DNA from: Podarcis gaigeae
Taxonomy: Eukaryota
DNA length: 64,000 bases
Assembly (NCBI GenBank): GCA_964106915.2
Contig: OZ066924.1
Direction: 5' to 3' (one strand)
A program made the position numbers and the translations under genes. Numbering within the stretch: the stretch's first letter is position 1; every line of letters begins with the position of its first letter. The notes under the pieces were generated by a model that saw nothing but the letters and a program-made list of their open reading frames with translations, was not told the origin of the DNA and did no database searches. Below, piece by piece: positions 6,252 through 53,590 of the stretch.

Positions 6252-6782
6252 CTGCAGGGCTAATCTGTGATTGGTATATTATACCCTTTCAGACTCAACA
6301 AAACTGAAGGATAGAGTATGCACTTTCAATTTTTATGAGAAGATTGTCCCCATTTGGGTCATAGCGTGGAACCCAAGTGGTGCCATTTTGCTTATGGAAG
6401 GACTGTTTAAGGTATCTGTTTAAGGAAGATAAGGCTATGCAATTTTTGCTAATTCCCCCTTGTCCCTGCAGTTCCTCACACCACCTTCCAAGTAGTTCTT
6501 AGAGGTTTCCCAGAGGGAGGCTGCAGGGGGAAGGGGAATATGCAAAAATCACCACCCCTTTCTTCTACTTGCAGATGATGCCAGCTGATCAAAAGCTGTT
6601 CTAGAGTGCAAGGGAACCAGTTGGATTACATCCATAACATTTAGAACATCCAAAATAATTGCCTTCATTGTGTGAGAGTCTCCAAAGTCTCTCCACTGGA
6701 ATGGCAGGAACACAAAATGGAGATGATGGACATGGTGACCCAATGTAATAGCTGTGCTCCATGTTGCAAGTGTTTCCAAGTA

Positions 6783-7007
6783 CAGTGGTACCTCTGGTTA
6801 TGTACTTAATTCGTTTTGGAGGTCCGTTCTTAACCTGAAGCACCACTTTAGCTAATGGGGTCTCCTGCTGCTGCCGCGCCACTGCAGCACGATTTCTGTT
6901 CTCATCCTGAAGCAAAGTTCTTAGCCCGAGGTACTATTTCTGGGTTAGCGGAGTCTGTAACCTGAAGCATATGTAACCTGAAGCGTATGTAACCCGAGGT
7001 ACCACTG
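6783..7007. mobile_element. Tc1/mariner (pogo/Tigger-like) MITE
   Basis: TIRs cagtggtacctc...gaggtaccactg flanked by TA on both sides; internal gtaacctgaagc repeats; same family as 50836-51073. Confidence 0.88.
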
Positions 7008-7024
7008 TATTACGTACAATAAGA

Positions 7025-10620: not shown

Positions 10621-10648
<28 letters not shown>

Positions 10649-13600
10649 ACCTTTATTGCATTAGCATACAGCCATAGCAGGATAAGACAAAAATGCTAGA
10701 GACAAGCAAGCAGACAAGATTCAAAGCGATATTACTGGCGTTATGACATTTAAATTACCCTAAGACAATAATGTAAAGATTTAGTTGCCGGCGCCGGGAA
10801 TCTAAAATGCGGATGTATATAAAGCATATAATGGCCCCAAAATAGGCTCGGCACAAAGGTTAAAAAGGTAATAAAAAGAATTAAAACAGGTCCAGGTCTA
10901 GGACACACTACCCAGTCAGAGTAGCCCTGAGTTTCAAAGCCTGCACTATAAAGATTGCCACCCCACGTGAAATTTGGGGATTTGCGTCCACAAGAAGCGA
11001 TTTCAAACAGTCTTCCTTAGATGTGATGGTGGACGGGATCAAGAGGAGGAGCTTAGTTCTTATTAGCTCATAAATAGGGCAGTAGAAAAAGAAATGTATG
11101 AAGTCCTCTACTTCATTCATTGTGTATGGACATAGACGCTGAGTAATAGGGGTCTTAGAGTAAATCCCCTGCAAGAAGGCCGTGGGTATAGAATGGAAAC
11201 GGGCCATGGTAAACGCTATTCTCAAATTGGGCTCCGTCAGGTCTATCAAGTAGTTGGCAAGTGATCTAACCACTTTCACTTTAGGGAGCCACATGGAGAG
11301 GCGAGCTGTGGTGGACTGTGCCCGGTCCATGGCCTCGTCTCTTGTAAGAATCCAGGCCCGGATTTTATGTTGGTCCCAAGATGACAGCGTGTCAAGATCT
11401 GGGAGGGAGTAGCGTGCAGTAATAGTCTCCTTGGCCTTGGACCATTTGTTGCTATGAGAACAAGTTAAAAAGGCTTGCCTGGCTAGTAGGGAATCTGGGG
11501 CTTTGATTAATTTACAATAAAAACTGATAATTCTAATGTGGGCTCTCGCAACAATGGAGGGTAGGCCCAGTTCTGTTCTTAACTGTGCAGCAACCGAGCC
11601 CTTGGGGAGACCCAGTACCTTCCATGCAAAAGTGTTTTGTAGAATCTCGAGCCGTTGTAGTGTTTTAAATTCCACGCCCAGATTTCAACCCCATACAGTA
11701 ACATTGGGAGGACTTTGCTGATAAATGCTTTTCTGATTGGTGGAACCAACTGGCCGCCTTTTGCATAGAAGAATTTCTCCAAGGCTTTGATGGTTCTACG
11801 GGCAGCCAGGATGGTGATATTTAGGTGAGCTGACCAGCTAAGCCCATGCTGAAAAGTGATACCCAAATACTTGAATGCTGAACAATATTCAATAGAGTGG
11901 CCCTCGAAATTCCAAAATTGCTTCCGAATTTTCGTGCCAAAAGTAAGAATTTTGGTTTTGGCAAAATTGATTTTGAGGGAGTTGGTATCACAATATGTCA
12001 TGAGCCCTCTGAGCATGTTGTTTAAGCCCTGCTTGGTTAAAGACAGTATCACCATGTCGTCCACATAAAGTAATATGGAGATCTTGCGCTGTTGTAAAGA
12101 GGGGGCAGATTGGTTTAGGGCCTTCATGGTTGTAACGATGTCATTGATGTAGAAATTAAATAGAAAAGGGGCCAAGAGGCAGCCCTGTTTGACCCCTTTA
12201 TTCAGAGGGAAAGAATCAGAAAGAGCTCCCAGAGGGCCAAATTTTACTCTGGCCGATATGTCATTATGAATTTCCATAAGAAGGTGGAGGAGTCTCTTAT
12301 CTATGTTGGTGTAACTAAGCTTCTGCCATAGCCTATCTCTAGGGATGGAGTCAAAAGCGGAGGTCAGGTCCACAAAGGCCGCGTGTAGTTTACAGTTGAA
12401 CCTGTTTAGGTATTTATCAATCAGGGTAAATAGAACAAGACATTGGCCAGATGTACTATGACCTTTACGGAAGCCAGCCTGTTCCGGGTGGAATAGCTTT
12501 GTTTCTTCTGCCCACTCGATTAATTTCTCTAGCAAGAATCTAGAGTAAACCTTGTATGATATGTCCAGCAGGCTGATAGGTCGATAGTTACGCGGATCTT
12601 GTGGGTCCCCCTTTTTATGTATTGGGATGACTATGCTCTGTTTCCAGTTAGGTGGAATCTTAAGAGTAGCATTAATTGTGGTAAAGAGAGATGCTAAGAT
12701 AGGGGCCCACCACATCTGGTTCGATAAAAATACCTCAGGTGGTATCATATCCTCCCCCGGGGATTTATCCCCTGATAGCATGCTGATTAGTTGTAAACAT
12801 CTCTCTGGGGAAACTGGTTCCCAGGTGGGCAAGGCAGATGCTGGAAGAGTAGAGACTACGTTTACTTCGGGATCTGGGGTGGAATACATCTGAGCAAAGT
12901 GAGAGTGCCAACTGGCTGCTGTGATGTTATTAACGATGAATGAGTGGGGTCTTAAACCTGCATTAATTAAATTCCAGAATTTCTTGTCGTCACGGGTTTT
13001 AATGGCCACTGACAGCGCCGTCCAGCGTTCTTTCGCAAAGAGCAATTTCTTATGTTGAAGCAGCTTCTTGTAGTATGAACGAAATTGGGCTAACTCCCTG
13101 ATTTTGCTCTGGGTGCTGTCTGATTTCATATCAGACTGAATAAATCTAAGCCAGCTTCTGCACTGTTTGCATTCTTCGTCGAACCAAGTTTGATTCTTCC
13201 AGGTTAGAATTGCACGGGGAGGTTTTGTGAGTGAAGGAAGCAAGTAGGCTAGAATTTGCTGGAAAATTGAGAAATGATTCACATTCATTGTTAACAGCTG
13301 AGCTTTCAAGGCTAGGATCTCAGGGGAATTTAGGAGGACTTTTATGTCTTGCTCCAGATAGGTATCCCACTTCTTACGTCCGGGGGCTAAGATCAGAGGG
13401 TCCTGGAGGTGGAGTGAGCTGGGAAGCCCCAGCTGTGTGTGGAGGAAGGAGATGGCGATTGGAAGGTGGTCACTTTCAGTTCTGTTGAACACATTGAAAC
13501 AATATGCCTATCATTAAATGCCGAGGAGGACCAGATGTAGTCTATAACACTTGCCCCTCTCGATCCTAGAAAAGTGTAGAATCCCCCGGACCAGTCTTTG

Positions 13601-21973: not shown

Positions 21974-22210
21974 CATTTCTATTCTGAAAGAACAAGTAGA
22001 AATTTAGACATGTGCAGGTGACTTCCATAGTCCCCCCCCCCCCCGGCACTGATTGATCTCTTTGGAAGAGAATAAGAGGCAGGGGGAAGGGGGATTTGGT
22101 GAACATTGCCTTCCTCACCCCTTCCATTTTAGTGACAGTCTCCCCCAGATCATCAGATCTTCTGCAACCCCTTTTGGAGGCAGAAGGAATACAAAAATCC
22201 AAGCCATTTA

Positions 22211-22738
22211 CAGTATTTTTCGTTCTATAAGACGCACCTGACCATAAGACGCACCTAGTTTTAGGGGAGGAGAACAAGAAAAAAATGTTCTCTCCCTCTC
22301 TGCTCAGCACCTCTCCAGCAAAGTGGGAGGAGAAATGGAAGGGGCTCCGTTTCTCCTCCCGCTTCGCTGAAGGGGCGCTGTGCAGCTCTTTCTCTCTGCA
22401 CAGCTCCCCTTCAGGTAGCGGCAGGAGAAACGGAGCTCCTTCCATTTCTCCTCCCACTTCACTGAAGGAGCACTGCGCAGAGAGGGAAAGCTGCTCAGCG
22501 GCTCTCCAGCGAAGCGAAGCCTCCTGAGCGCAGCGGGAGTGCTCCCGCTGCACTCAGGAGGCTTCGGACGGCTATCCCTGAAGCCAGGAGAGCAAGAGGG
22601 ATTGGTGCGCACCAATCCCTCTTGCTCTCCTGGCTTCAGCGAAAGCTGTGCAGCCTGCATTCGCTCCATAAGACGCACACACATTTCCCCTTACTTTTTA
22701 GGAGGGGAAAAGTGCATCTTATAGAGCAGAAAATACGG
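22211..22738. mobile_element. Tc2/pogo-type non-autonomous DNA transposon
   Basis: TIRs c(a/c)gtatttt(t)c..tctataagacgcac with TA flanks; GC-rich internal palindromes; same family as 38260-38519. Confidence 0.85.
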
Positions 22739-23272
22739 TATATGCTGGAGGGGTGCAGCTAATTTTCAGAAGTATCAGTTGCACTGGAATCAACTTTATA
22801 GGGCCGAGGTGCTTTTGACCCCATCAATATCTGTGAGGAGGGGACAGGCCCTCTCAATGTTGAGGGGGCAGAGGATGCTGAACGTGGAGCCAAGCATGAA
22901 ACAGAAGGAGCCACTAGCCATTGAAGCCATGCTACACTTGGCTCTGCACTCGGCCTCCTCCTGGCGATCTGACGTCATGCGTGCAACACGCAGTGCACAA
23001 CACATGCATGACATCATACATGCACAACGCACAATGGGCCCCCTCAATCTTGGTCATAAGTTGGTGCTTCTGATGAGTTGTGATCCAAAGACACTTGCTG
23101 CTATTTCTGTGCACACAAGGGTGCTTCGACTTTTGTGTTTCTCAAACATCAGCTTCCAGTACCTCACAACAACTTACTTGCGAAACTGATGAGATTTTCA
23201 AAAGTGGTTTGCCATATGGCAAAGAGGGATAGGGAGGTCCCTGCTGCTCAGTGAAAAAGGACAAGAACCCTT

Positions 23273-26184: not shown

Positions 26185-26319
26185 NNNNNNNNNNNNNNNN
26201 NNNNNNNNNNNNNNNNNNNNNNNNNNNNNNNNNNNNNNNNNNNNNNNNNNNNNNNNNNNNNNNNNNNNNNNNNNNNNNNNNNNNNNNNNNNNNNNNNNNN
26301 NNNNNNNNNNNNNNNNNNN
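26185..26319. other. Assembly gap
   Basis: N run. Confidence 1.
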
Positions 26320-37488: not shown

Positions 37489-38259
37489 TAGTTGTGCATT
37501 TGAGCCACAGGGGACCACTAACCATTACTTCCTCCAAAGATCTCAGTGTTTGGACAGGGATGCAACGGATCAGGCAGTCCTTGAGCCTTCTGGGAACCAT
37601 GAATGTGAAGAGTGCTGCTGCAGGCAGGCCCTGCTTCTGGATGTCCCATAGATATCTGGTTGGCAACCATTAGAACAGGATGGGCTATTGATGTGAATCA
37701 GCAAGACTCTCCTTTGTCTTCCTTGTTCAAACACCAATTCATGGCAAAATCCCTCAATTCAGAAACCAAGCCTGTTTTTCTTTTTTAGCAAAATGGAAGC
37801 TTGGCATGCAGTAAACTGTGAACCTGGTATGCTTTAAATTGCTATCAAGTAGAACTGAAATAAATGGTGCATCTCAAAATTTATGAACCACATTCAAAGA
37901 TATTTCATTTATTTGGACTACTGGTGAAATTTAATACATACTGTGTTAAATTCATTAAATTATGCAGTCCCCCTGAGTATTCTTTTCGGTTTGCTGAAAT
38001 CTCTCACAAAGAAAGCCAGCAACAGAAAGCTAGCAAACCAGGTATTATAGCCACCTATTTGGACTTCATCTCCGATGTTCCTCACTATGGTCACCAAGTG
38101 AACAGCGTTAATTTTCTCTTGGCTATGTCCATGAAAACAGCCTTTTCCTCTCTGTGATGTCTCTATGGTCTTCCTGACCAAACCAACCACATTCTTTATA
38201 CCAAGTGGGGTGGTAAGGCAATTAGACATGGGTGATAGACAAGACCTAGCAATGAAGTA

Positions 38260-38519
38260 CCGTATTTTTTGCTCTATAAGACTCACTTTTTCCCTCCTAA
38301 AAAGTAAGGGGAAATGTGTGTGCGTCTTATGGAGTGAATGCAGGCTGCGCAGCTATCCCAGAAGCCAGAACAGCAAGAGGGATCGCTGCTTTCACTGCGC
38401 AGCGATCCCTCTTGCTGTTCCGGCTTCTGAGATTCAGATTTTTTTTTCTTCTTGTTTTCCTCCTCCAAAAACCAGGTGCGTCTTGTGGTCTGGTGCATCT
38501 TATAGAGCGAAAAATACGG
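38260..38519. mobile_element. Tc2/pogo-type MITE
   Basis: ccgtatttttt gctctataaga...tatagagcgaaaaatacgg TIRs, TA flanks, internal hairpin. Confidence 0.88.
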
Positions 38520-38688
38520 TAATTTATTTCACCTGTTCCTAGCTTCCAAACTTCTTGCTTCTTTTGTTTGCCGCACTCCTGGATTCTTTCTCTGATGTCT
38601 AGTTCTCTGGCTCTCTTATTGGTTTATATATGCCCACAAACACACAATTCCAATTCCTTCTTCCAACCTCTTAACCAATCAGAAAAAC

Positions 38689-40731: not shown

Positions 40732-40840
40732 GCCCTGTGGATAGCTCAGTCGATAGAGCAGGAGACTCTTAATCTCAGAGTTGTGGGTTTGATCCCCATG
40801 TTGGATCAATTGACCCTTGTGGGGTCAACTCTACAATTAC
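40732..40840 (+). mobile_element. tRNA-Lys(CTT)-derived SINE
   Basis: tagctcagtcgatagagcaggagactcttaatctcagagttgtgggtttgatcccca resembles tRNA-Lys-CTT with substitutions, followed by a CR1-like tail remnant. Confidence 0.7.
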
Positions 40841-43722: not shown

Positions 43723-44101
43723 NNNNNNNNNNNNNNNNNNNNNNNNNNNNNNNNNNNNNNNNNNNNNNNNNNNNNNNNNNNNNNNNNNNNNNNNNNNNNN
43801 NNNNNNNNNNNNNNNNNNNNNNNNNNNNNNNNNNNNNNNNNNNNNNNNNNNNNNNNNNNNNNNNNNNNNNNNNNNNNNNNNNNNNNNNNNNNNNNNNNNN
43901 NNNNNNNNNNNNNNNNNNNNNNNNNNNNNNNNNNNNNNNNNNNNNNNNNNNNNNNNNNNNNNNNNNNNNNNNNNNNNNNNNNNNNNNNNNNNNNNNNNNN
44001 NNNNNNNNNNNNNNNNNNNNNNNNNNNNNNNNNNNNNNNNNNNNNNNNNNNNNNNNNNNNNNNNNNNNNNNNNNNNNNNNNNNNNNNNNNNNNNNNNNNN
44101 N
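43723..44101. other. Assembly gap (follows a TATC repeat)
   Basis: N run. Confidence 1.
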
Positions 44102-47329: not shown

Positions 47330-48976
47330 GCTGTGTGGCATGCATAAATTCCTAGTATCAGAATACAGTTATGGGAATTTCTTCACCTGTTGGTTTTCTG
47401 TTTGTCTGACGTCTTATTACTTGTGTATGTTCCCTGATTTGTTTTTGGTCCATCTGCATAAGAGAACACAAATTTCATTTAGTCAATGTGCACAGAAATG
47501 TTATGCAAATTTGTGTCTTCTTTTGCAGATGGAGCAGAGGACACAATCCACATGCATTGTACTGTTCCCAGTCAACCCCTGTAACTAGGCAGCAGCATAC
47601 CCAAAAGGGGGGCGCTATGACAACTCTGAAATATAGACCTCTGCTTAATTTTGTGTGTTTGATGTGGGGCTGAGGCTGGTTAAAACTTACACTGAAAATA
47701 TCCCTCACAGAACAGCCCGAGGATATGGTCAGTCTTGTTCCATTCTCCCTCTCAATGTCCCCCACCCAGCTCAAATTCAGCATTCAGTTGCAATCTGAAT
47801 CCTTGTGTTCCATTGACTTGCATGCAGACAAATCACTTATGAAAATGCTCAGAGAATACATTACAAAAGTAAGAGTGAAATTAGCAGTGAGCAATTTGCA
47901 CCTTATGCAAATTAGGTTATTCAGACTTGGGAGACGGGAGAATGGCATCTCTCCATAACACACAAAATTAGCCCAAGAGCAGGTTGTATGAAATGAATAT
48001 GTAATTTGTGCAGGTAGCAAAAATAAGGAAAGCTAGCCTTCAAATCATCAACACATGACCAAGATCGCTACTGAATTGCTGGAAAGAATGCCATCATTTG
48101 TCAACCATGCAATCAAACCTTGGCCCTTGACTATTGTTTTGCAGATCATAAAACTGGCATCAGGAGTCCTGTGATCCACAACTTCAGATTCATGAAGTGT
48201 GAAAGTCTCCTTCAGTCAAGCTTTCATTAATATCTCAAGAAGGATATTAATAAATGGAAGAAAGAAACTTCTGCGGAAAGAAGTATTCTGCATAAGCTTC
48301 TTCATTGTTACCATTTAAATTACATTCTGTGTCTGCCACTTAATAAAACCCATTGCCTCCATTTACAGAAAGTGAAAATTAATTTGGTGTTCTCAACCTG
48401 AAACTACCTTCATCTGTTCATTTCTGGAAAATTATGCACTTAGTGGTCTTTCAGAGGCATAAGATGGAGATGGTCCTTGTTGTGAGGACTGCCATGTATT
48501 ACAGAGAACGTTTATGGGGGAGCTTAACAGCCATCCTTAAAAGAGCCGTCCCCAACCTGGTGCCCCCCACTCATTTTGGACTACAACTCCCAGCAGCCCC
48601 AGCAGCTGAGCAGTGCTGCATTGAGCTGATGGGAGTTGTAGCACAGAACACCTGGAGGGCACTAGGCTGGGGAAGACTGCTTGAAGGCCACAACACTTCT
48701 TCTGAGAGAGTGTGACCAGCCTATCACTGTCATGACAAATACATTTTCTCACACTTACACGAGAAATCACTGCAGATAATGAAGGGCGTAACCAACATGG
48801 TGCCCTCCAGCTGTTGTGGGACTACAGCTCATAGTCCCTGCTAGTGTGGGCACCAGGGATGATGGGATTTGTAGTCCAACAAGATCTGGAAGGCATATAG
48901 TTGCCCCTGCTATAGGTGATTGTCTTATTGAACTAGATGCCCCTGCTGTAGGTAACACATGTAACAAGTCTCTTAT

Positions 48977-49358
48977 AAGGTAAAGGGATCCCTGACCATT
49001 AGGTCCAGTTGTGACCGACTCTGGGGTTGCGGTGCTCATCTTGCTTTACTGGCTGAGGGAGCCAAAACCCCCAAAATTGACTGAGTTTTCTCCTTACTTG
49101 CACTTCTCAACAAATGAGACTGCTTGGCTAATCAAGATCTGATATAAAGAGCCATTATCTCCCAATAAAGGTAAAGGTAAAGGGACCCCTGACACAGCTC
49201 TGGAGTGGTACCTATTTCTCTACTTGCACTTGACGTGCTTTCGAACTGGTAGGTTGGCAGGAGCAGGGACTAAGCAACAGGAGCTCACCCCGTCGCAGGG
49301 ATTCGAACTGCCGACCTTCTGATTGGCAAGTCCTAGGCTCTGTGGTTTAACCCACAGC
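48977..49358 (-). mobile_element. Chimeric Sauria SINE with internal 130-nt insertion copied from 52611-52748
   Basis: SINE 3' part 48977-49064, inserted flank plus second tail 49064-49193, SINE 5' part 49194-49358 with an internal deletion. Confidence 0.88.
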
Positions 49359-50405
49359 TACAGCAGGGCAAAACAAATGGGTCATATGCTGAAACTCAAA
49401 CCTTTGATTATCTATTTTCCCAGTACAGGTGGCGACCATTTTAGGCACATTCAACTGACATGTGAGCACTGACATGCAGGTCCATTTGGACCAGGTAGAG
49501 GGCAGAATGGGAGTGGAACAAGGGAAGGGCATAATTAGGGTGTAATGTGCTTATGCACACTTCACTGATGCATGTGGGGGTCGGGAATGGAATCCCCTGG
49601 GCAAAATGGTAGCTTCCTGCACAGCACAACTCTTTTAATTGGTACAATAAATAAACATTTTAATGTTGGAGCAGATATCTCTTTTTTATTTATTTAAGCA
49701 GGATATATAAAAAAGAAAGTGATGCCATTTTGGAGAGTGGAATGTTGGGGCTCAGTAGTTAGAGTCAGATATCCTATAGTCTTTCACCTGAGGAAAAAAA
49801 GGATTCTATAAGCCAATCTTTTCCAACTGCGTGCCCTCCAGAATTGGTTAGACCAACTCCCACCAGCCCTACTCAGCATGGCCAATGACCAAGGAAGATG
49901 GAAGTTATAATTCAAAACATTTGAAGGGTACCAGGTTGAGGATGGCTGGTAGAAACAAATGGGATGGACCACTGTGACTTGGACACATGCAGAAAGTCCT
50001 AGAAATTCAATTTCCAGTTTGTTTTTAAATTTCACATGGCGAATCTTGGAAGCATTTTTGCCTACAACCTTTTGAAGCACTGGCACCACTTGACAATCTA
50101 GAGAATTTGGGTTTATGACTATACAATCCTAGAGCTACTTTATTTCTTCTTGAAGGGAAATAATTTCATGAACAATATGGCTGGCATTATGTCTATCAGC
50201 TGAAACCCATGTATTAGAAACAGTTGCCCATTGTTCTGCCATTCACAATCCACATACATGGTCACCCCATGTTGTAGTAGAAGGCCCATCAAATGATTCC
50301 AGAGGGATGGGAAGGTGTTACCAAAATGTATGCAGCTGATTATACAACATCTTAGGCAAGAAACAGCCACCACTTTGGAACACCTGCTCATTTTTGTTTC
50401 ATCTA

Positions 50406-50768
50406 AGGTAAAGGTAAAGGTACCCCTGCCCGTACGGGCCAGTCTTGACAGACTCTGGGGTTGTGCGCCCATCTCACTTAAGAGGCCAGGGGCCAGCGCT
50501 GTCCGGAGACACTTCCGGGTCACGTGGCCAGCGTGACATCGCTGCTCTGGCGAGCCAGAGCCGCACACGGAAACACCGTTTACCTTCCCGCTGGTAAGCG
50601 GTCCCTATTTATCTACTTGCACCCGGAGGTGCTTTCGAACTGCTAGGTTGGCAGGCGCTGGGACCGAGCAGCGGGAGCGCACCCCGCCGCAGGGATTCGA
50701 ACCGCCGACCTTTCGATCGGCAAGTCCTAGGCGCTGAGGCTTTAACCCACAGCGCCACCTGCGTCCCC
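50406..50768 (-). mobile_element. Young Sauria SINE (distinct CpG-rich subfamily)
   Basis: CpGs retained; perfect 14-bp TSD ttttgtttcatcta at 50392-50405 and 50771-50784. Confidence 0.94.
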
Positions 50769-50835
50769 TATTTTGTTTCATCTAGCATGAAACAAAACAA
50801 CACGTCAGCCCTTCATGCGATATTTTCCATAAATA

Positions 50836-51073
50836 CAGTGGCACCTCGGGTTACGGACGCTTCAGGTTACAGACGCTTCAGGTTACAGACGCTTCAGGTT
50901 ACAGGTTCCACCAACCCAGAAATAGTACTTCAGGTTAAGAACAGAAATTGTGAGTGACGGTACAGTGGCAGCGGGAGGCCCCATTAGCTAAAGTGGTACC
51001 TCAGGTTAAGAACAGTTTCAGGTTAAGAACGGACCTCCGGAACGAATTAAGTTCTTAACCCGAGGTACCACTA
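50836..51073. mobile_element. Tc1/mariner MITE, family of 6783-7007 in opposite orientation
   Basis: cagtggcacctcgggtta...aacccgaggtaccact TIRs, TA flanks. Confidence 0.86.
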
Positions 51074-52721
51074 TACTTCACTTTTCATTCAAAGGACCTT
51101 TTACCTGAAGGAATGACCAGCGGGTGTGGAGCACACTTCCACCTACAGACAAAGCCACAGCAGTCTGAACATCATGCCCTCTATCTAACCTTTGCTCTCT
51201 TAGTGGTCTGCCATGCCCTGTCTATGACCTTTGTCTCCTTTATCATACATTGTTCTAGGAGAAAGTGACACGGTGGAAACAGGTGCCAAAATAACTTTGT
51301 ACCACCCCACGATCTCGGGATTGGAAGATGTGTAAAGGTCACAGTCCAAAATGTATCTGCCTGGTTTTGCATATTGTGCTAATATAAAGAGCCTTGGCAG
51401 AGCTAGCTGGCAGCTTGCTTATGCACAGCTCACCTGCATTACCAACTCCTGCCTCATGTCCTTCACTTCATTACCTCTTATGAACATTGTCTTCACAAGA
51501 CTAATCTTAAATATGCGTGAATAGTCACACTTCAAGTTTCCACACTGAAGGTCTCATTTTACAAAGTTTCTCTCAAGTTTTTTAGGAGATCACCAGAAAG
51601 ATCTGAGCTGGCAGTTTTTACTTGTATTGAAGGGAATATATACATTCCTCCCTCAAAAAGGTGATTGCACGGCAGTCATGCCACAGAATTTCATGCTGTA
51701 TAGTTTTATACACCAGCTATAAACATATTGTTTAAGAAAAGGAACTATGCACTGAGGCAGAATATATTAACTGAGAAGGAAAGGGTGGCATCTGATTCTG
51801 ATGTCACATGAGTCAAAGGAGCAAACTCAGTGGGCTTCAGCAAAGGCAACTTTTGACAATTAAAATAGAGTGTTGTTGGATTTTAGGCTTATACATACAT
51901 ACAGACACACAAGCCATGTAGAAGCTGCTTTTCTGCAATGTGTTTTGATGTTACTGAGAGCTGCAGGTAAATGATGTAATTATGTGGTTGAGATCAATTG
52001 CACAAATCTCTCCCATTGCACACCTTGAATCGTGCAGCAGGATCTTCTACATGGCAGAGAAGGGCACTCATAAGAAGGCGTAATGGGTAGCAGAAACATC
52101 AAGCTGGTGGCTCAGTGATCACCATCCAATCTTTGCTAGAAGATGGGATCTCACTCAAAGCTGTGTTTGTCAAAGGACCAAGCGTGCTTCTTCATTTCCA
52201 CTGAGGCAGCCTTGGAGGAAGGTTGATGGCTTAAGACTAAGTAATAATTATTTAAGAAGCATAAACAGAAACAATTGAAATCTAGAAAGACGCATTATGT
52301 GCTTCCTCTCAGGGGTTATAAAATAGGTTCTAAATTTTTTAATCTTTGCCTCATCTGTGTGTGCTTCATCTAATATGCATGCCTAGATGTAATGAATATA
52401 AATTGTATCTAAAATAAACTAATAAATTGGATCCCTGATTAGCCAAAACAGTCTCATTTGTTGAAAAGTCAAATGCAAATTCTTCAGGGTCATTGTCTCA
52501 ACATGAATACAAGTGAGGTTCAGACCTTTTTCTCGAGAACACATCCTTCCCCTTTTCTTAAGAATATATAAAGTGAATGGCTAAAAGATTCTTTTTCTAA
52601 AAAAACCCCAAAAACTCCCAAGATGGACTGAGTTTTCTCCTTACTTGCACTTCTCAACAAATGAGACTGCTTTGGCTAATCAAGATCTGATTTATTATAT
52701 AAAGAGCCATTCTCTCCCAAT

Positions 52722-53077
52722 AAAGGTAAAGGTAAAGGGACCCCTGACCATTAGGTCCAGTCGTGACCGACTCTGGGGTTGCGGCACTCATCTCGCTTTA
52801 TTGACTGAGGGAGCCAGCGTACAGCTTCTGGGTCATGTGGCCAGCATGACTAAGCCACTTCTGGCGAACCAGAGCAGCACACAGAAACGCCGTTTACCTT
52901 CCTGCTGGAGTGGTACCTATTTATCTACTTGCACTTGACGTGCTTTCGAACTGCTAGGTTGGCAGGAGCAGGGACCGAGCAAGGGGAGCTCACCCAGTCG
53001 CGGGGATTCGAACTGCCGACCTTCTGATTGGCAAGTCCTAGGCTCTGTGGTTTAACCCACAGCGTCACCTGCATCCC
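52722..53077 (-). mobile_element. Sauria SINE
   Basis: Full length, tail aaaggtaaaggtaaagggacccc to head gcatccc. Confidence 0.93.
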
Positions 53078-53428
53078 TTAACAATAACAACAAGCAAATT
53101 CATTTATTTGTTGCATCTGTATGCTTGTCTCATGCCTTTTTGGCAAGTGTATGTGGTCAGCAGATCTAAGTTCCAAGGTCCATGTGAAATCAAACCCATT
53201 TATATACAGGGTAGCGCTCTATGTGTTTCCAAGCAACACACTGAAAATCTTAAACTGCTTTACAATGAGTCCAGATAGCCCAGTTTTGTCTAATCTGAAT
53301 GGTAATGGTTCTTCTGAGTTTTAGGCAAGGCATCTTGTACAACAAGAGCTCCCCTTAACTGGAGATGTCATTGATTGGACCTGAATAACTTCTGCATATA
53401 CAACAGTTGAGTTGGGCTCCTACCTTCT

Positions 53429-53590
53429 TAGAATCATAGAATCAAAGAATTGTAGAACTGGAAGGGACCGCGGGGGTTATCTAATCCAAACCCCTGCAAT
53501 GCAGGAATCTTTTTTCCCCCTAAGAAGGGGCTTGAACCCATGAACCTGAGATTAAGAGTCTCATCATCTACCGTATGAACTATCCCAGCT
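53429..53590 (-). mobile_element. tRNA-Lys-derived SINE with CR1-type tail
   Basis: Reverse complement has a gagactcttaatctcagg head and an attctatgattct tail. Confidence 0.72.

Follow-up and report, generated by a model that had tools for sequence, protein, structure and literature searches.

The analysed window, a 64,000-nt stretch of contig OZ066924.1 from the lizard Podarcis gaigeae (assembly GCA_964106915.2), contains a complete minus-strand SINE at 52.7 kb, hereafter the donor, and a rearranged minus-strand SINE some 3.5 kb away, hereafter the host, within which part of the donor's downstream flank and tail recurs (Table 1). From its size and boxes, its tail and its target features, we take this SINE to be the Sauria SINE (Squam1). 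Promoter boxes were scanned for with the familiar A- and B-box patterns. Sauria SINEs are about 360 bp long with Pol III boxes A and B (PMC10058329), in agreement with the length and boxes of the donor, and their 3′ end is (ACCTTT)n (PMC13295347 Table 4), the tail found in both donor and host. Their insertions show a Tn-TA target signature, with a target-site duplication (TSD) starting at T (PMC13295347); the donor has this signature, with the TSD TTATTG on its sense strand (CAATAA on the plus strand, at 52718 and 53082) and TTT about 10 nt upstream of TA, and the host has a T/A step at its 3′ junction only.

Table 1 Features of the host and donor SINEs, with positions in the window
Feature	Positions	Strand	Remarks
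Piece A: SINE 3′ part with (ACCTTT) tail	48977–49063	−	87 nt; homologous to donor 52729–52815
Piece B	49064–49193	−	Copy of donor 52611–52748; both indels derived in copy
Uncertain outer edge of piece B	49064–49078	.	3 substitutions in 15 nt against 52611–52625, or slipped copy of 52602–52613
Six-base piece ACAGCT	49194–49199	−	Homologous to donor 52821–52826
Piece C: SINE head half	49200–49358	−	Homologous to donor 52905–53063; carries donor's changes
Inverted 11-nt copy of 48941–48951	49358–49368	.	Starts at host 5′ junction
Inverted-end element, MITE-like	52420–52697	.	~280 bp, ~50-bp ends; 88% over 50 nt between ends
Second T-run (T7)	52599–52605	−	Edge of copy here under the alternative alignment
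First T4+ run (T5) after donor promoter	52610–52614	−	Predicted Pol III terminator
Donor Sauria-type SINE	52722–53077	−	Full length, 356 bp; B box and A-box-like motif; short TSD

The flank of the donor holds an inverted-end element that folds with a z score of −8.1 (0 of 100 shuffles as good), has a possible TA at both ends, and has no second copy within the 64-kb window; the copied stretch starts inside this element and takes in its right arm. Scans of metagenome contigs for a flank motif and a SINE motif, and of viral contigs for a SINE motif, gave 0 matches each; lizard DNA is not expected in such collections, and these zeros carry no information on copy number. The tRNA-Lys prediction that lies 440 nt upstream of the donor (30.4 bits, broken stems) we take for a decayed old SINE head and not for an active gene that could promote donor transcription.

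Alignment with blastn bears out the copy on which the earlier note was built, matching piece B to its donor segment over 138 columns with 91.3% identity (E 1.7e-51), 4 mismatches, two gaps of 7 nt and 1 nt (8 nt gapped), and an offset of 3547 nt. The segment consists of 111 nt of downstream flank and, from the SINE itself, 27 nt of tail and 3′ end, minus the 8 nt deleted. The direction of copying runs from donor to host, as the note had it, because comparison with the opposite arm of the inverted element shows both flank indels to be derived in the copy. The host was rejected as the donor, the 52.7-kb SINE being complete and left intact, possessing a TSD, and being ancestral at both indels. 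The copy shows more private changes (11 versus 4), an excess that is not significant (p 0.12).

Within the host the pieces follow one another as A, B, the six-base piece and C, with a second tail and two deletions; this order, the donor's identity, the direction of copying and the junction sequences are what the comparison shows. The insert junction GGGAGCC(A)/insert/ACAGCT, at which 4–5 nt of the SINE are gone, is as the earlier note described it, and the host SINE as a whole has no TSD either (best match 5 nt, away from the junctions). The note's picture of an insertion into another SINE is incomplete in that the head half of the host also traces to the donor. Relative to the donor, ACAGCT (a word that recurs at 49354–49359) resumes 5 nt past the point where piece A stops; directly after it 78 nt are missing (donor 52827–52904), and piece C stops 14 nt before reaching the SINE 5′ end. 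The 11-nt inverted match there, whose length was equalled at 10 of 19,581 random positions, is likely a fold-back filler. The first junction has CC(A) microhomology, the second is blunt, and the third has CTGG with one T lost; microhomology of 2–3 nt is weak on its own.

Piece A matches the donor at 81 of 88 nt and three control copies at 80, 79 and 77 nt, has one CpG change in common with the donor, and may stem from the donor or from another SINE copy. Changes at CpG sites were compared after excluding 15 of the 35 sites found (14 uncovered by the host or cut by a junction, 1 ambiguous) and dropping 1 that was fixed in all five copies, which left 19; three of the seven other SINE copies served as controls, with the 50.4-kb copy used only for site definition and three older copies left out. 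Piece C has each of the five CpG>TG changes that the donor shows among 13 sites (permutation p 0.0006), versus p 0.29–0.37 for the three control copies in the same test, and the donor's T loss is present as well; on these comparisons the front half of the host likely derives from the donor. Of the shared variants listed in the earlier note, the final A of ctgagggagcca may be part of the insert. If the changes in piece C had come from a source gene, CpG transitions in the donor would stand at 0 of 8 in C versus 10 of 19 elsewhere (p 0.012); because source-gene inheritance leaves C so oddly undecayed, the donor would already have been aged and CpG-decayed when copied, and the changes likely arose in it after its own insertion. 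Non-CpG differences (3 of 73 in piece A versus 3 of 253 in B and C, p 0.13, not significant) and the single shared change of piece A would fit an older host. No copy of the host's subfamily lies nearer to it than the donor; the 50.4-kb copy is closer to the host and belongs to another subfamily (140 of 165 nt versus 157). Together, the extra 78-nt loss, the head-half changes and the inverted junction copy indicate that the copying was larger than piece B, and most of the donor unit, between its first T-run and a point 14 nt from its start, was likely copied, in the form of three pieces that follow an 87-nt SINE tail.

The edge of the copy falls, as the earlier note claimed, in the donor's first A4+ run on the plus strand (A5), with none between 52615 and 53100 and an A7 run next; the T4 termination rule is used as applied in PMC3412727. 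The exact edge is uncertain because three of the four substitutions sit within the first 15 nt of the copy (p about 0.01), and the slipped alignment that the note allowed for may be the true one. The copied flank, carried along with element sequence, also contains an A4 run of its own at 49073–49076, 9 nt in from its edge, opposite AAGA in the donor (52620–52623); on the sense strand piece B ends in T4 just before piece A. The CC(A) at the host's left end is shared with donor 52608–52610, past the terminator, and is one of five CCA sites in 52420–52721, two longer-match (GCCA) sites being unused. An edge in the first T-run is expected by chance in 0.9–3.1% of cases under three assumed length distributions, and we put the coincidence at 1–5% overall, a modest figure; 11% of flank positions lie in or beside an A4 run. 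A hairpin at 52611–52636 with its base at the copy edge was discarded as evidence, since 119 of 200 shuffled sequences fold as well as it does. The 78-nt deletion, the copy's A4 run, the substitution cluster, the CC(A) and the inverted-end element are not in the earlier note, nor was the 3.5-kb proximity weighed there.

In the reading that we favour, and hold somewhat more probable than not, the host was rebuilt by DNA-templated repair or conversion off its neighbour, with template switches. A break inside an existing SINE near 49063, or a SINE insertion stalled after 87 nt, would have provided a free 3′ end that paired by homology with the nearest copy of its own subfamily; synthesis would have restarted 205 nt further left at the CC(A), copying 138 nt of flank and tail, after which the stretch already paired with piece A would have been skipped, with resumption 5 nt past the exit point, and a further 78 nt would have been skipped via CTGG before the head half was copied and host variants were replaced by those of the donor. 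The break, the nature of the template and the timing as a single event are what we infer here. In favour of this sequence of events are the proximity and identity of the donor as the closest copy of the host subfamily, the CpG-decayed state of the donor when copied, the host's lack of a TSD, and the CC of the left junction, which lies outside a terminated RNA. The 3.5-kb distance is a prediction of DNA-templated gap filling: among the animal transposon gap fillers in the available text of PMC8277862, 160 of 281 came from within 15 kb, mostly <5 kb, with a median microhomology of 2 bp, and here the donor is within a few kb and intact, with microhomology at at least one junction. A parallel human case joins three duplicated fragments with Alu-to-Alu conversion (PMC5829575). 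Against DNA repair are the edge in the donor's first T-run, the block spanning nearly the whole predicted transcript, and the blunt second junction; the inverted filler suggests one aberrant insertion event rather than later repair, and the 205-nt backward jump needs donor DNA opened beyond the homologous stretch. In a weaker form, Pol III transcription of the donor may have set the limits of the DNA-templated patch by leaving the non-template strand, the one that the break end needs, single-stranded from promoter to terminator. Such a single-stranded donor would also account for the edge position. With 124 G against 114 C, the donor unit is hardly skewed towards G and so gives an R-loop no direct support.

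The earlier note had instead read the insert as cDNA of a donor read-through transcript. The edge does lie in the first T-run, and the donor retains a B box and an A-box-like motif. An RNA origin is not established because the coincidence is only 1–5%, the microhomology lies past the terminator and the proximity suits DNA repair; we regard a single insertion event with local capture of such a cDNA as a live alternative, though less probable than not. In this scenario Bov-B reverse transcriptase would have started at the (ACCTTT) tail of a SINE RNA and reached a broken 5′ end 87 nt on. It would then have switched to the donor transcript, whether on that RNA molecule or on another, at its free UUUU end, and gone through flank and tail until it halted 20 nt into sequence with which its cDNA was already paired. 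A further jump would have taken it to a free end at 52821, after which it would have skipped 78 nt and stopped 14 nt short of the 5′ end, where the fold-back filler would have closed the junction. Both outer limits of B and C coincide with the predicted transcript limits, the second junction is blunt with the return 5 nt from the exit point, the donor's B box is kept, and the host's 3′ T/A step is as in Sauria SINE targets (PMC13295347). As far as the available texts go, a non-LTR reverse transcriptase tested in vitro jumps to 3′ ends, with addition of A's (PMC8857657), which by inference would suit a U-ending RNA, Anolis has U6 chimeras with RTE-like LINEs and a SINE (PMC4476161), and RNA-derived patches at breaks have been reported (PMC5110952). 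The RNA must nevertheless be caught near the site of synthesis: with 10 kb of a 1.5-Gb genome (PMC13295347 Table 1), we estimate the chance that a freely diffusing RNA originates within 5 kb at about 1 in 100,000, and free diffusion gives no reason for the donor to be the closest copy of the same subfamily. Capture in cis, with the UUUU end serving as the landing point for Bov-B reverse transcriptase 3.5 kb away, would be needed, and we think this possible, though less probable than not. The templated insertions in the available text of PMC5110952 had distant rather than nearby donors, Alu transduction was confirmed in 0 among 118,489 AluY in that of 10.1101/2024.04.29.591526, the AAAA in the copy, if ancestral, would have been an earlier terminator, and the CC past the T-run, the decayed donor and the frequency of A4 runs also count against RNA. 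A likelihood sketch with assumed inputs gave values for RNA from 0.001 to 0.999, driven mainly by the rate assigned to next-door RNA capture, and does not decide the matter.

It seems improbable that the pieces arose in separate events, with an independent SINE that descends from the donor's source gene taking up only the 130-nt patch, the deletion having another cause and the shared variants coming from the common source gene or CpG homoplasy. The 13.7-kb copy has three of the six shared CpG changes too, and when these are set aside 3 of 16 sites are shared (p 0.07); there are only three control copies, and T-run length differs among SINE copies. Yet no control comes close to piece C, a source-gene origin conflicts with the decay elsewhere in the donor, and the 78-nt deletion lies 6 nt from the insert. 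An assembly artefact or a dispersed composite repeat of flank and SINE tail, to which two sized gaps in the window and the MITE-like flank might point, is highly improbable. Judged from the assembly itself, a mis-assembled duplicate is unlikely because the copy differs by 12 nt in 138; moreover, the SINE parts show CpG-type divergence, the flanks are unique on both sides, no assembly gap is closer than the one ending at 44101, 4.9 kb off, and the succession of element end, spacer, TSD and SINE tail that the copy includes is specific to the donor locus.

The locus is thus a known kind of local rearrangement with an interesting RNA alternative. On the likelier reading of DNA-templated repair it is a one-off that imitates a transduction and a warning that SINE-to-SINE repair can both mimic transduction and overwrite the age of a copy. 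Copying from donor RNA would be a rarely seen event; if true, it would bear on whether Pol III-transcribed SINEs ever carry flank and on whether RNA of a neighbouring locus templates germ-line insertions, would imply germ-line transcription of old SINE copies and their ability to template insertions or repair nearby, and would amount to a locally biased SINE 3′ transduction through template jumping, with the terminator included in the record. We found no description of such an event in Sauria SINEs in searches of an open-access collection of papers.

Among known systems, several share part of this structure, each being compared as its available text describes it. L1 and SVA 3′ transductions likewise place unique downstream flank elsewhere with element sequence (10.1101/2024.04.29.591526); unlike them, the present insert is not collinear between TSDs, its flank is followed by a second SINE tail, and its source is local. 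The U6/L1, U6/RTEX-2 and U6/AnolisSINE2 chimeras (PMC4476161) similarly join a T-run-ended Pol III unit to a 5′-truncated retroelement 3′ part in the same orientation, whereas here no TSD pair surrounds the whole, the upstream partner is a SINE with flank, there are two internal deletions, and the donor is next door. Class 2 templated insertions (PMC5110952) resemble it in lacking a TSD and poly(A), in microdeletion and microhomology, and in size (theirs 73–414 bp), but their donors were distant, whereas the present donor lies 3.5 kb off and shares homology with its host. At L1 integration sites, nascent cDNA pairs with nearby DNA to yield templated insertions from short local templates (<250 bp), which fit the 11-nt filler and also a stalled insertion switching to neighbour DNA; their templates are typically within 15 bp, in contrast to our main donor at 3.5 kb (10.1101/2024.08.27.596794). 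Single-copy Pack-TIRs, which arise when gaps are filled independently of transposition (Tan et al. 2021, PMC8277862), are alike in filler within an old element, a donor a few kb off, short microhomology and small loss, and differ in that here the host is a SINE, the donor is homologous to it, and three pieces and apparent conversion are involved. The human multiple non-tandem duplication with Alu-to-Alu conversion of Frith and Khan 2018 (PMC5829575, Fig. 6F) differs from the lizard Sauria SINE case in the edge at the donor's first Pol III T-run, unmentioned in the available text; like that case, for which template switching was proposed as the general cause, the present locus has several local duplicated fragments at one site, part of them via conversion between equivalent SINE regions.

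The minus-strand SINE copy at 48977-49358 (hereafter the host) carries the product of a real, locus-specific event that is more complex than first described, with sequence matching a full-length Sauria-type SINE 3.5 kb away (the donor, 52722-53077, minus strand) and its flank. The near-identical copy of donor tail and flank reported in an earlier note was recovered by blastn (piece B in the table; 91.3% over 138 columns at E 1.7e-51, with four mismatches and two gaps, one of 7 nt and the other of 1 nt). The first T4+ run of the donor also lies where it had been placed: the first A4+ run on the plus strand is the A5 at 52610-52614, with none in 52615-53100, and the next is the A7 at 52599-52605. 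A target-site duplication (TSD) was looked for around the host element and none was found, in agreement with the note, and the insertion into the host SINE stood as described; the event itself had been left incomplete, a further 78-nt loss having been overlooked. The window has two gaps (26185-26319 and 43723-44101). It contains nine copies of this SINE family, whose size, Pol III boxes, (ACCTTT) tail and donor target signature fit Sauria SINE/Squam1 as characterized in excerpts of the published descriptions (PMC13295347, PMC10058329).

Pieces of the host with their donor counterparts, and other elements (window coordinates)
Feature	Position	Strand	Donor counterpart	Description
Piece A	48977-49063	-	52729-52815	
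Piece B	49064-49193	-	52611-52748	
Six-base piece	49194-49199	-	52821-52826	ACAGCT
Piece C	49200-49358	-	52905-53063	
tRNA-Lys(CTT)-like	53518-53589	-		Decayed, 30.4 bits; following tail resembles a CR1-type 3' end; likely an old SINE head from a different family
tRNA match	40742-40799	+		Weak, 35.8 bits; probably a SINE head
LINE fragment	10624-13507	-		Reverse transcriptase domain PF00078 (E 2e-35), two frames; ends in AATAAA and (GATT)n, unlike Bov-B, which is reported to end in (CAA)n
Palindromic block	22208-22740			Complex, nested inverted and direct repeats; partial similarity to 38258-38522
Element with inverted ends	50831-51078			Internal 16-nt tandem repeats; related stretch near 6778-7020; each adjoins a SINE copy

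Along the plus strand, synthesis would have moved 205 nt back, then 72 nt forward to 5 nt past its exit, and then 78 nt forward. At junction 1, CC(A) is common to the host and donor 52608-52610, the CC being located past the T-run. A blunt join is seen at junction 2, and junction 3 is compatible with CTGG microhomology and the loss of one T. At its 5' end the host lacks the first 14 nt of the SINE, and the 11 nt found there are an inverted copy of 48941-48951, a match equalled at 10 of 19,581 random positions. Directly left of the host SINE is a 20-nt direct repeat (48898-48953; 90%, spacing 36), whose second unit is the source of this inverted filler.

Piece B starts inside a ~280-bp element (52420-52697) whose ends form inverted repeats of ~50 bp (88%; fold z -8.1, 0/100 shuffles), possibly an old MITE, of which the window holds no second copy. 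With the left arm of this element as reference, both indels of B are derived in the copy, which fixes the direction as donor to host, and since B spans a locus-specific junction with the SINE tail, the donor is the 52.7-kb locus even if the flank element is dispersed. The base of a small donor hairpin (52611-52636) coincides with the edge of the copy, and two of three edge differences make the hairpin more perfect in the donor; it was rejected as evidence, its folding being no stronger than that of shuffles.

The head half of the host (piece C) likely derives from the donor after the latter had aged, judging from the sequence comparisons. Across 19 CpG sites, defined from six copies only, host and donor share six derived states (p 0.0097; nine other pairs, 0.09-0.79); three of these are also in the SINE copy at 13.7 kb, and without them p = 0.07. 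At the 13 CpG sites of piece C, the host has 5/5 donor TG changes (p 0.0006; 0.29-0.37 for three control SINE copies in the window), together with a T loss common to host and donor and absent from the controls; the earlier account of an insert in another SINE is thus incomplete. Host identity to the donor is 157/165 nt in C (controls 152, 145, and 142) and 81/88 nt in A (80, 79, and 77), and these near-equal values make A assignable to no particular copy. Were the shared changes source-gene variants, the donor would have 0/8 CpG transitions in C versus 10/19 elsewhere (p 0.012), an odd lack of decay that speaks against such an origin and for the copying of C from an already aged donor. Divergence of the SINE parts (5/210, non-CpG) and of the inner 115 nt of B (1 substitution and 2 indels) would be compatible with a single event.

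The edge, or outer limit of B, falls in the first T-run of the donor, a predicted Pol III terminator. The chance of a random edge in this run is 0.9-3.1% under three assumed length distributions and 1.4-4.7% under uniform spans of 500-150 nt, and at any A4 run it is 11%; if CCA is required for priming, the edge is one of five CCA sites in 52420-52721, and two GCCA sites went unused. Its position is blurred: the outermost 15 nt of B hold three of its four substitutions (p about 0.01), the copy may instead start in the A7 run, and at 49073-49076 it reads AAAA against AAGA in the donor. An ancestral AAAA would put the first T4 inside the copy; AAGA is somewhat likelier to be ancestral, since the other polarised changes of B belong to the copy. 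By our estimate, the coincidence favours an RNA end perhaps 5- to 50-fold, with no discount for the match being why the locus was flagged.

We judge the most likely origin, by a modest margin, to be a rearrangement of known kind, local and templated by DNA, involving the two neighbouring SINEs. The end of a broken or half-inserted SINE would have paired with its neighbour, primed on CC(A), copied the flank and tail, bypassed the sequence with which piece A was already paired, and then converted the head half. We regard with more doubt a route in which reverse transcriptase primed on the tail repeat, reached the end of a broken RNA, switched to a donor read-through transcript at its UUUU end, came to a halt in its own hybrid, and then jumped again. 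This single event would cover the edge, blunt junction, 5' limit, and filler, and excerpts of the literature offer precedents in template jumping in vitro (PMC8857657), Anolis chimeras that join U6 to RTE-like LINEs and to a SINE (PMC4476161), local templates at L1 insertions (10.1101/2024.08.27.596794), and SINE transcripts that continue as far as the first T4 (PMC3412727). That synthesis resumed 5 nt beyond its exit is explained alike by both routes, because the RNA sequence is that of the donor minus strand.

The terminator coincidence favours an RNA end, but donor proximity favours the opposite side: the donor is the nearest to the host among host-subfamily copies in the window, and an origin within 5 kb would be expected of a diffusing RNA about 1 time in 100,000. 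The RNA route requires local capture, a precedent for which was not found in the open-access literature (most subscription journals lie outside it); in the portions of the sources available, experimental RNA-derived patches come from distant sites, not nearby ones (PMC5110952), and no transduction was confirmed among 118,489 AluY (10.1101/2024.04.29.591526). A likelihood sketch with assumed inputs spanned 0.001-0.999, so our ranking of the routes is a judgement. A hybrid in which transcription exposed the donor DNA would unite proximity and edge; the donor unit shows almost no G skew (124 G, 114 C), and so no direct sign of an R-loop. The RNA route, if true, would be notable. For the DNA-templated rearrangement that we prefer, a precedent is the human case in which three fragments were duplicated and Alu conversion took place (excerpted in PMC5829575), and DNA gap filling shows just such a bias towards near donors, with 160/281 single-copy Pack-TIR fillers coming from within 15 kb, mostly <5 kb, in the part of that study consulted (PMC8277862).
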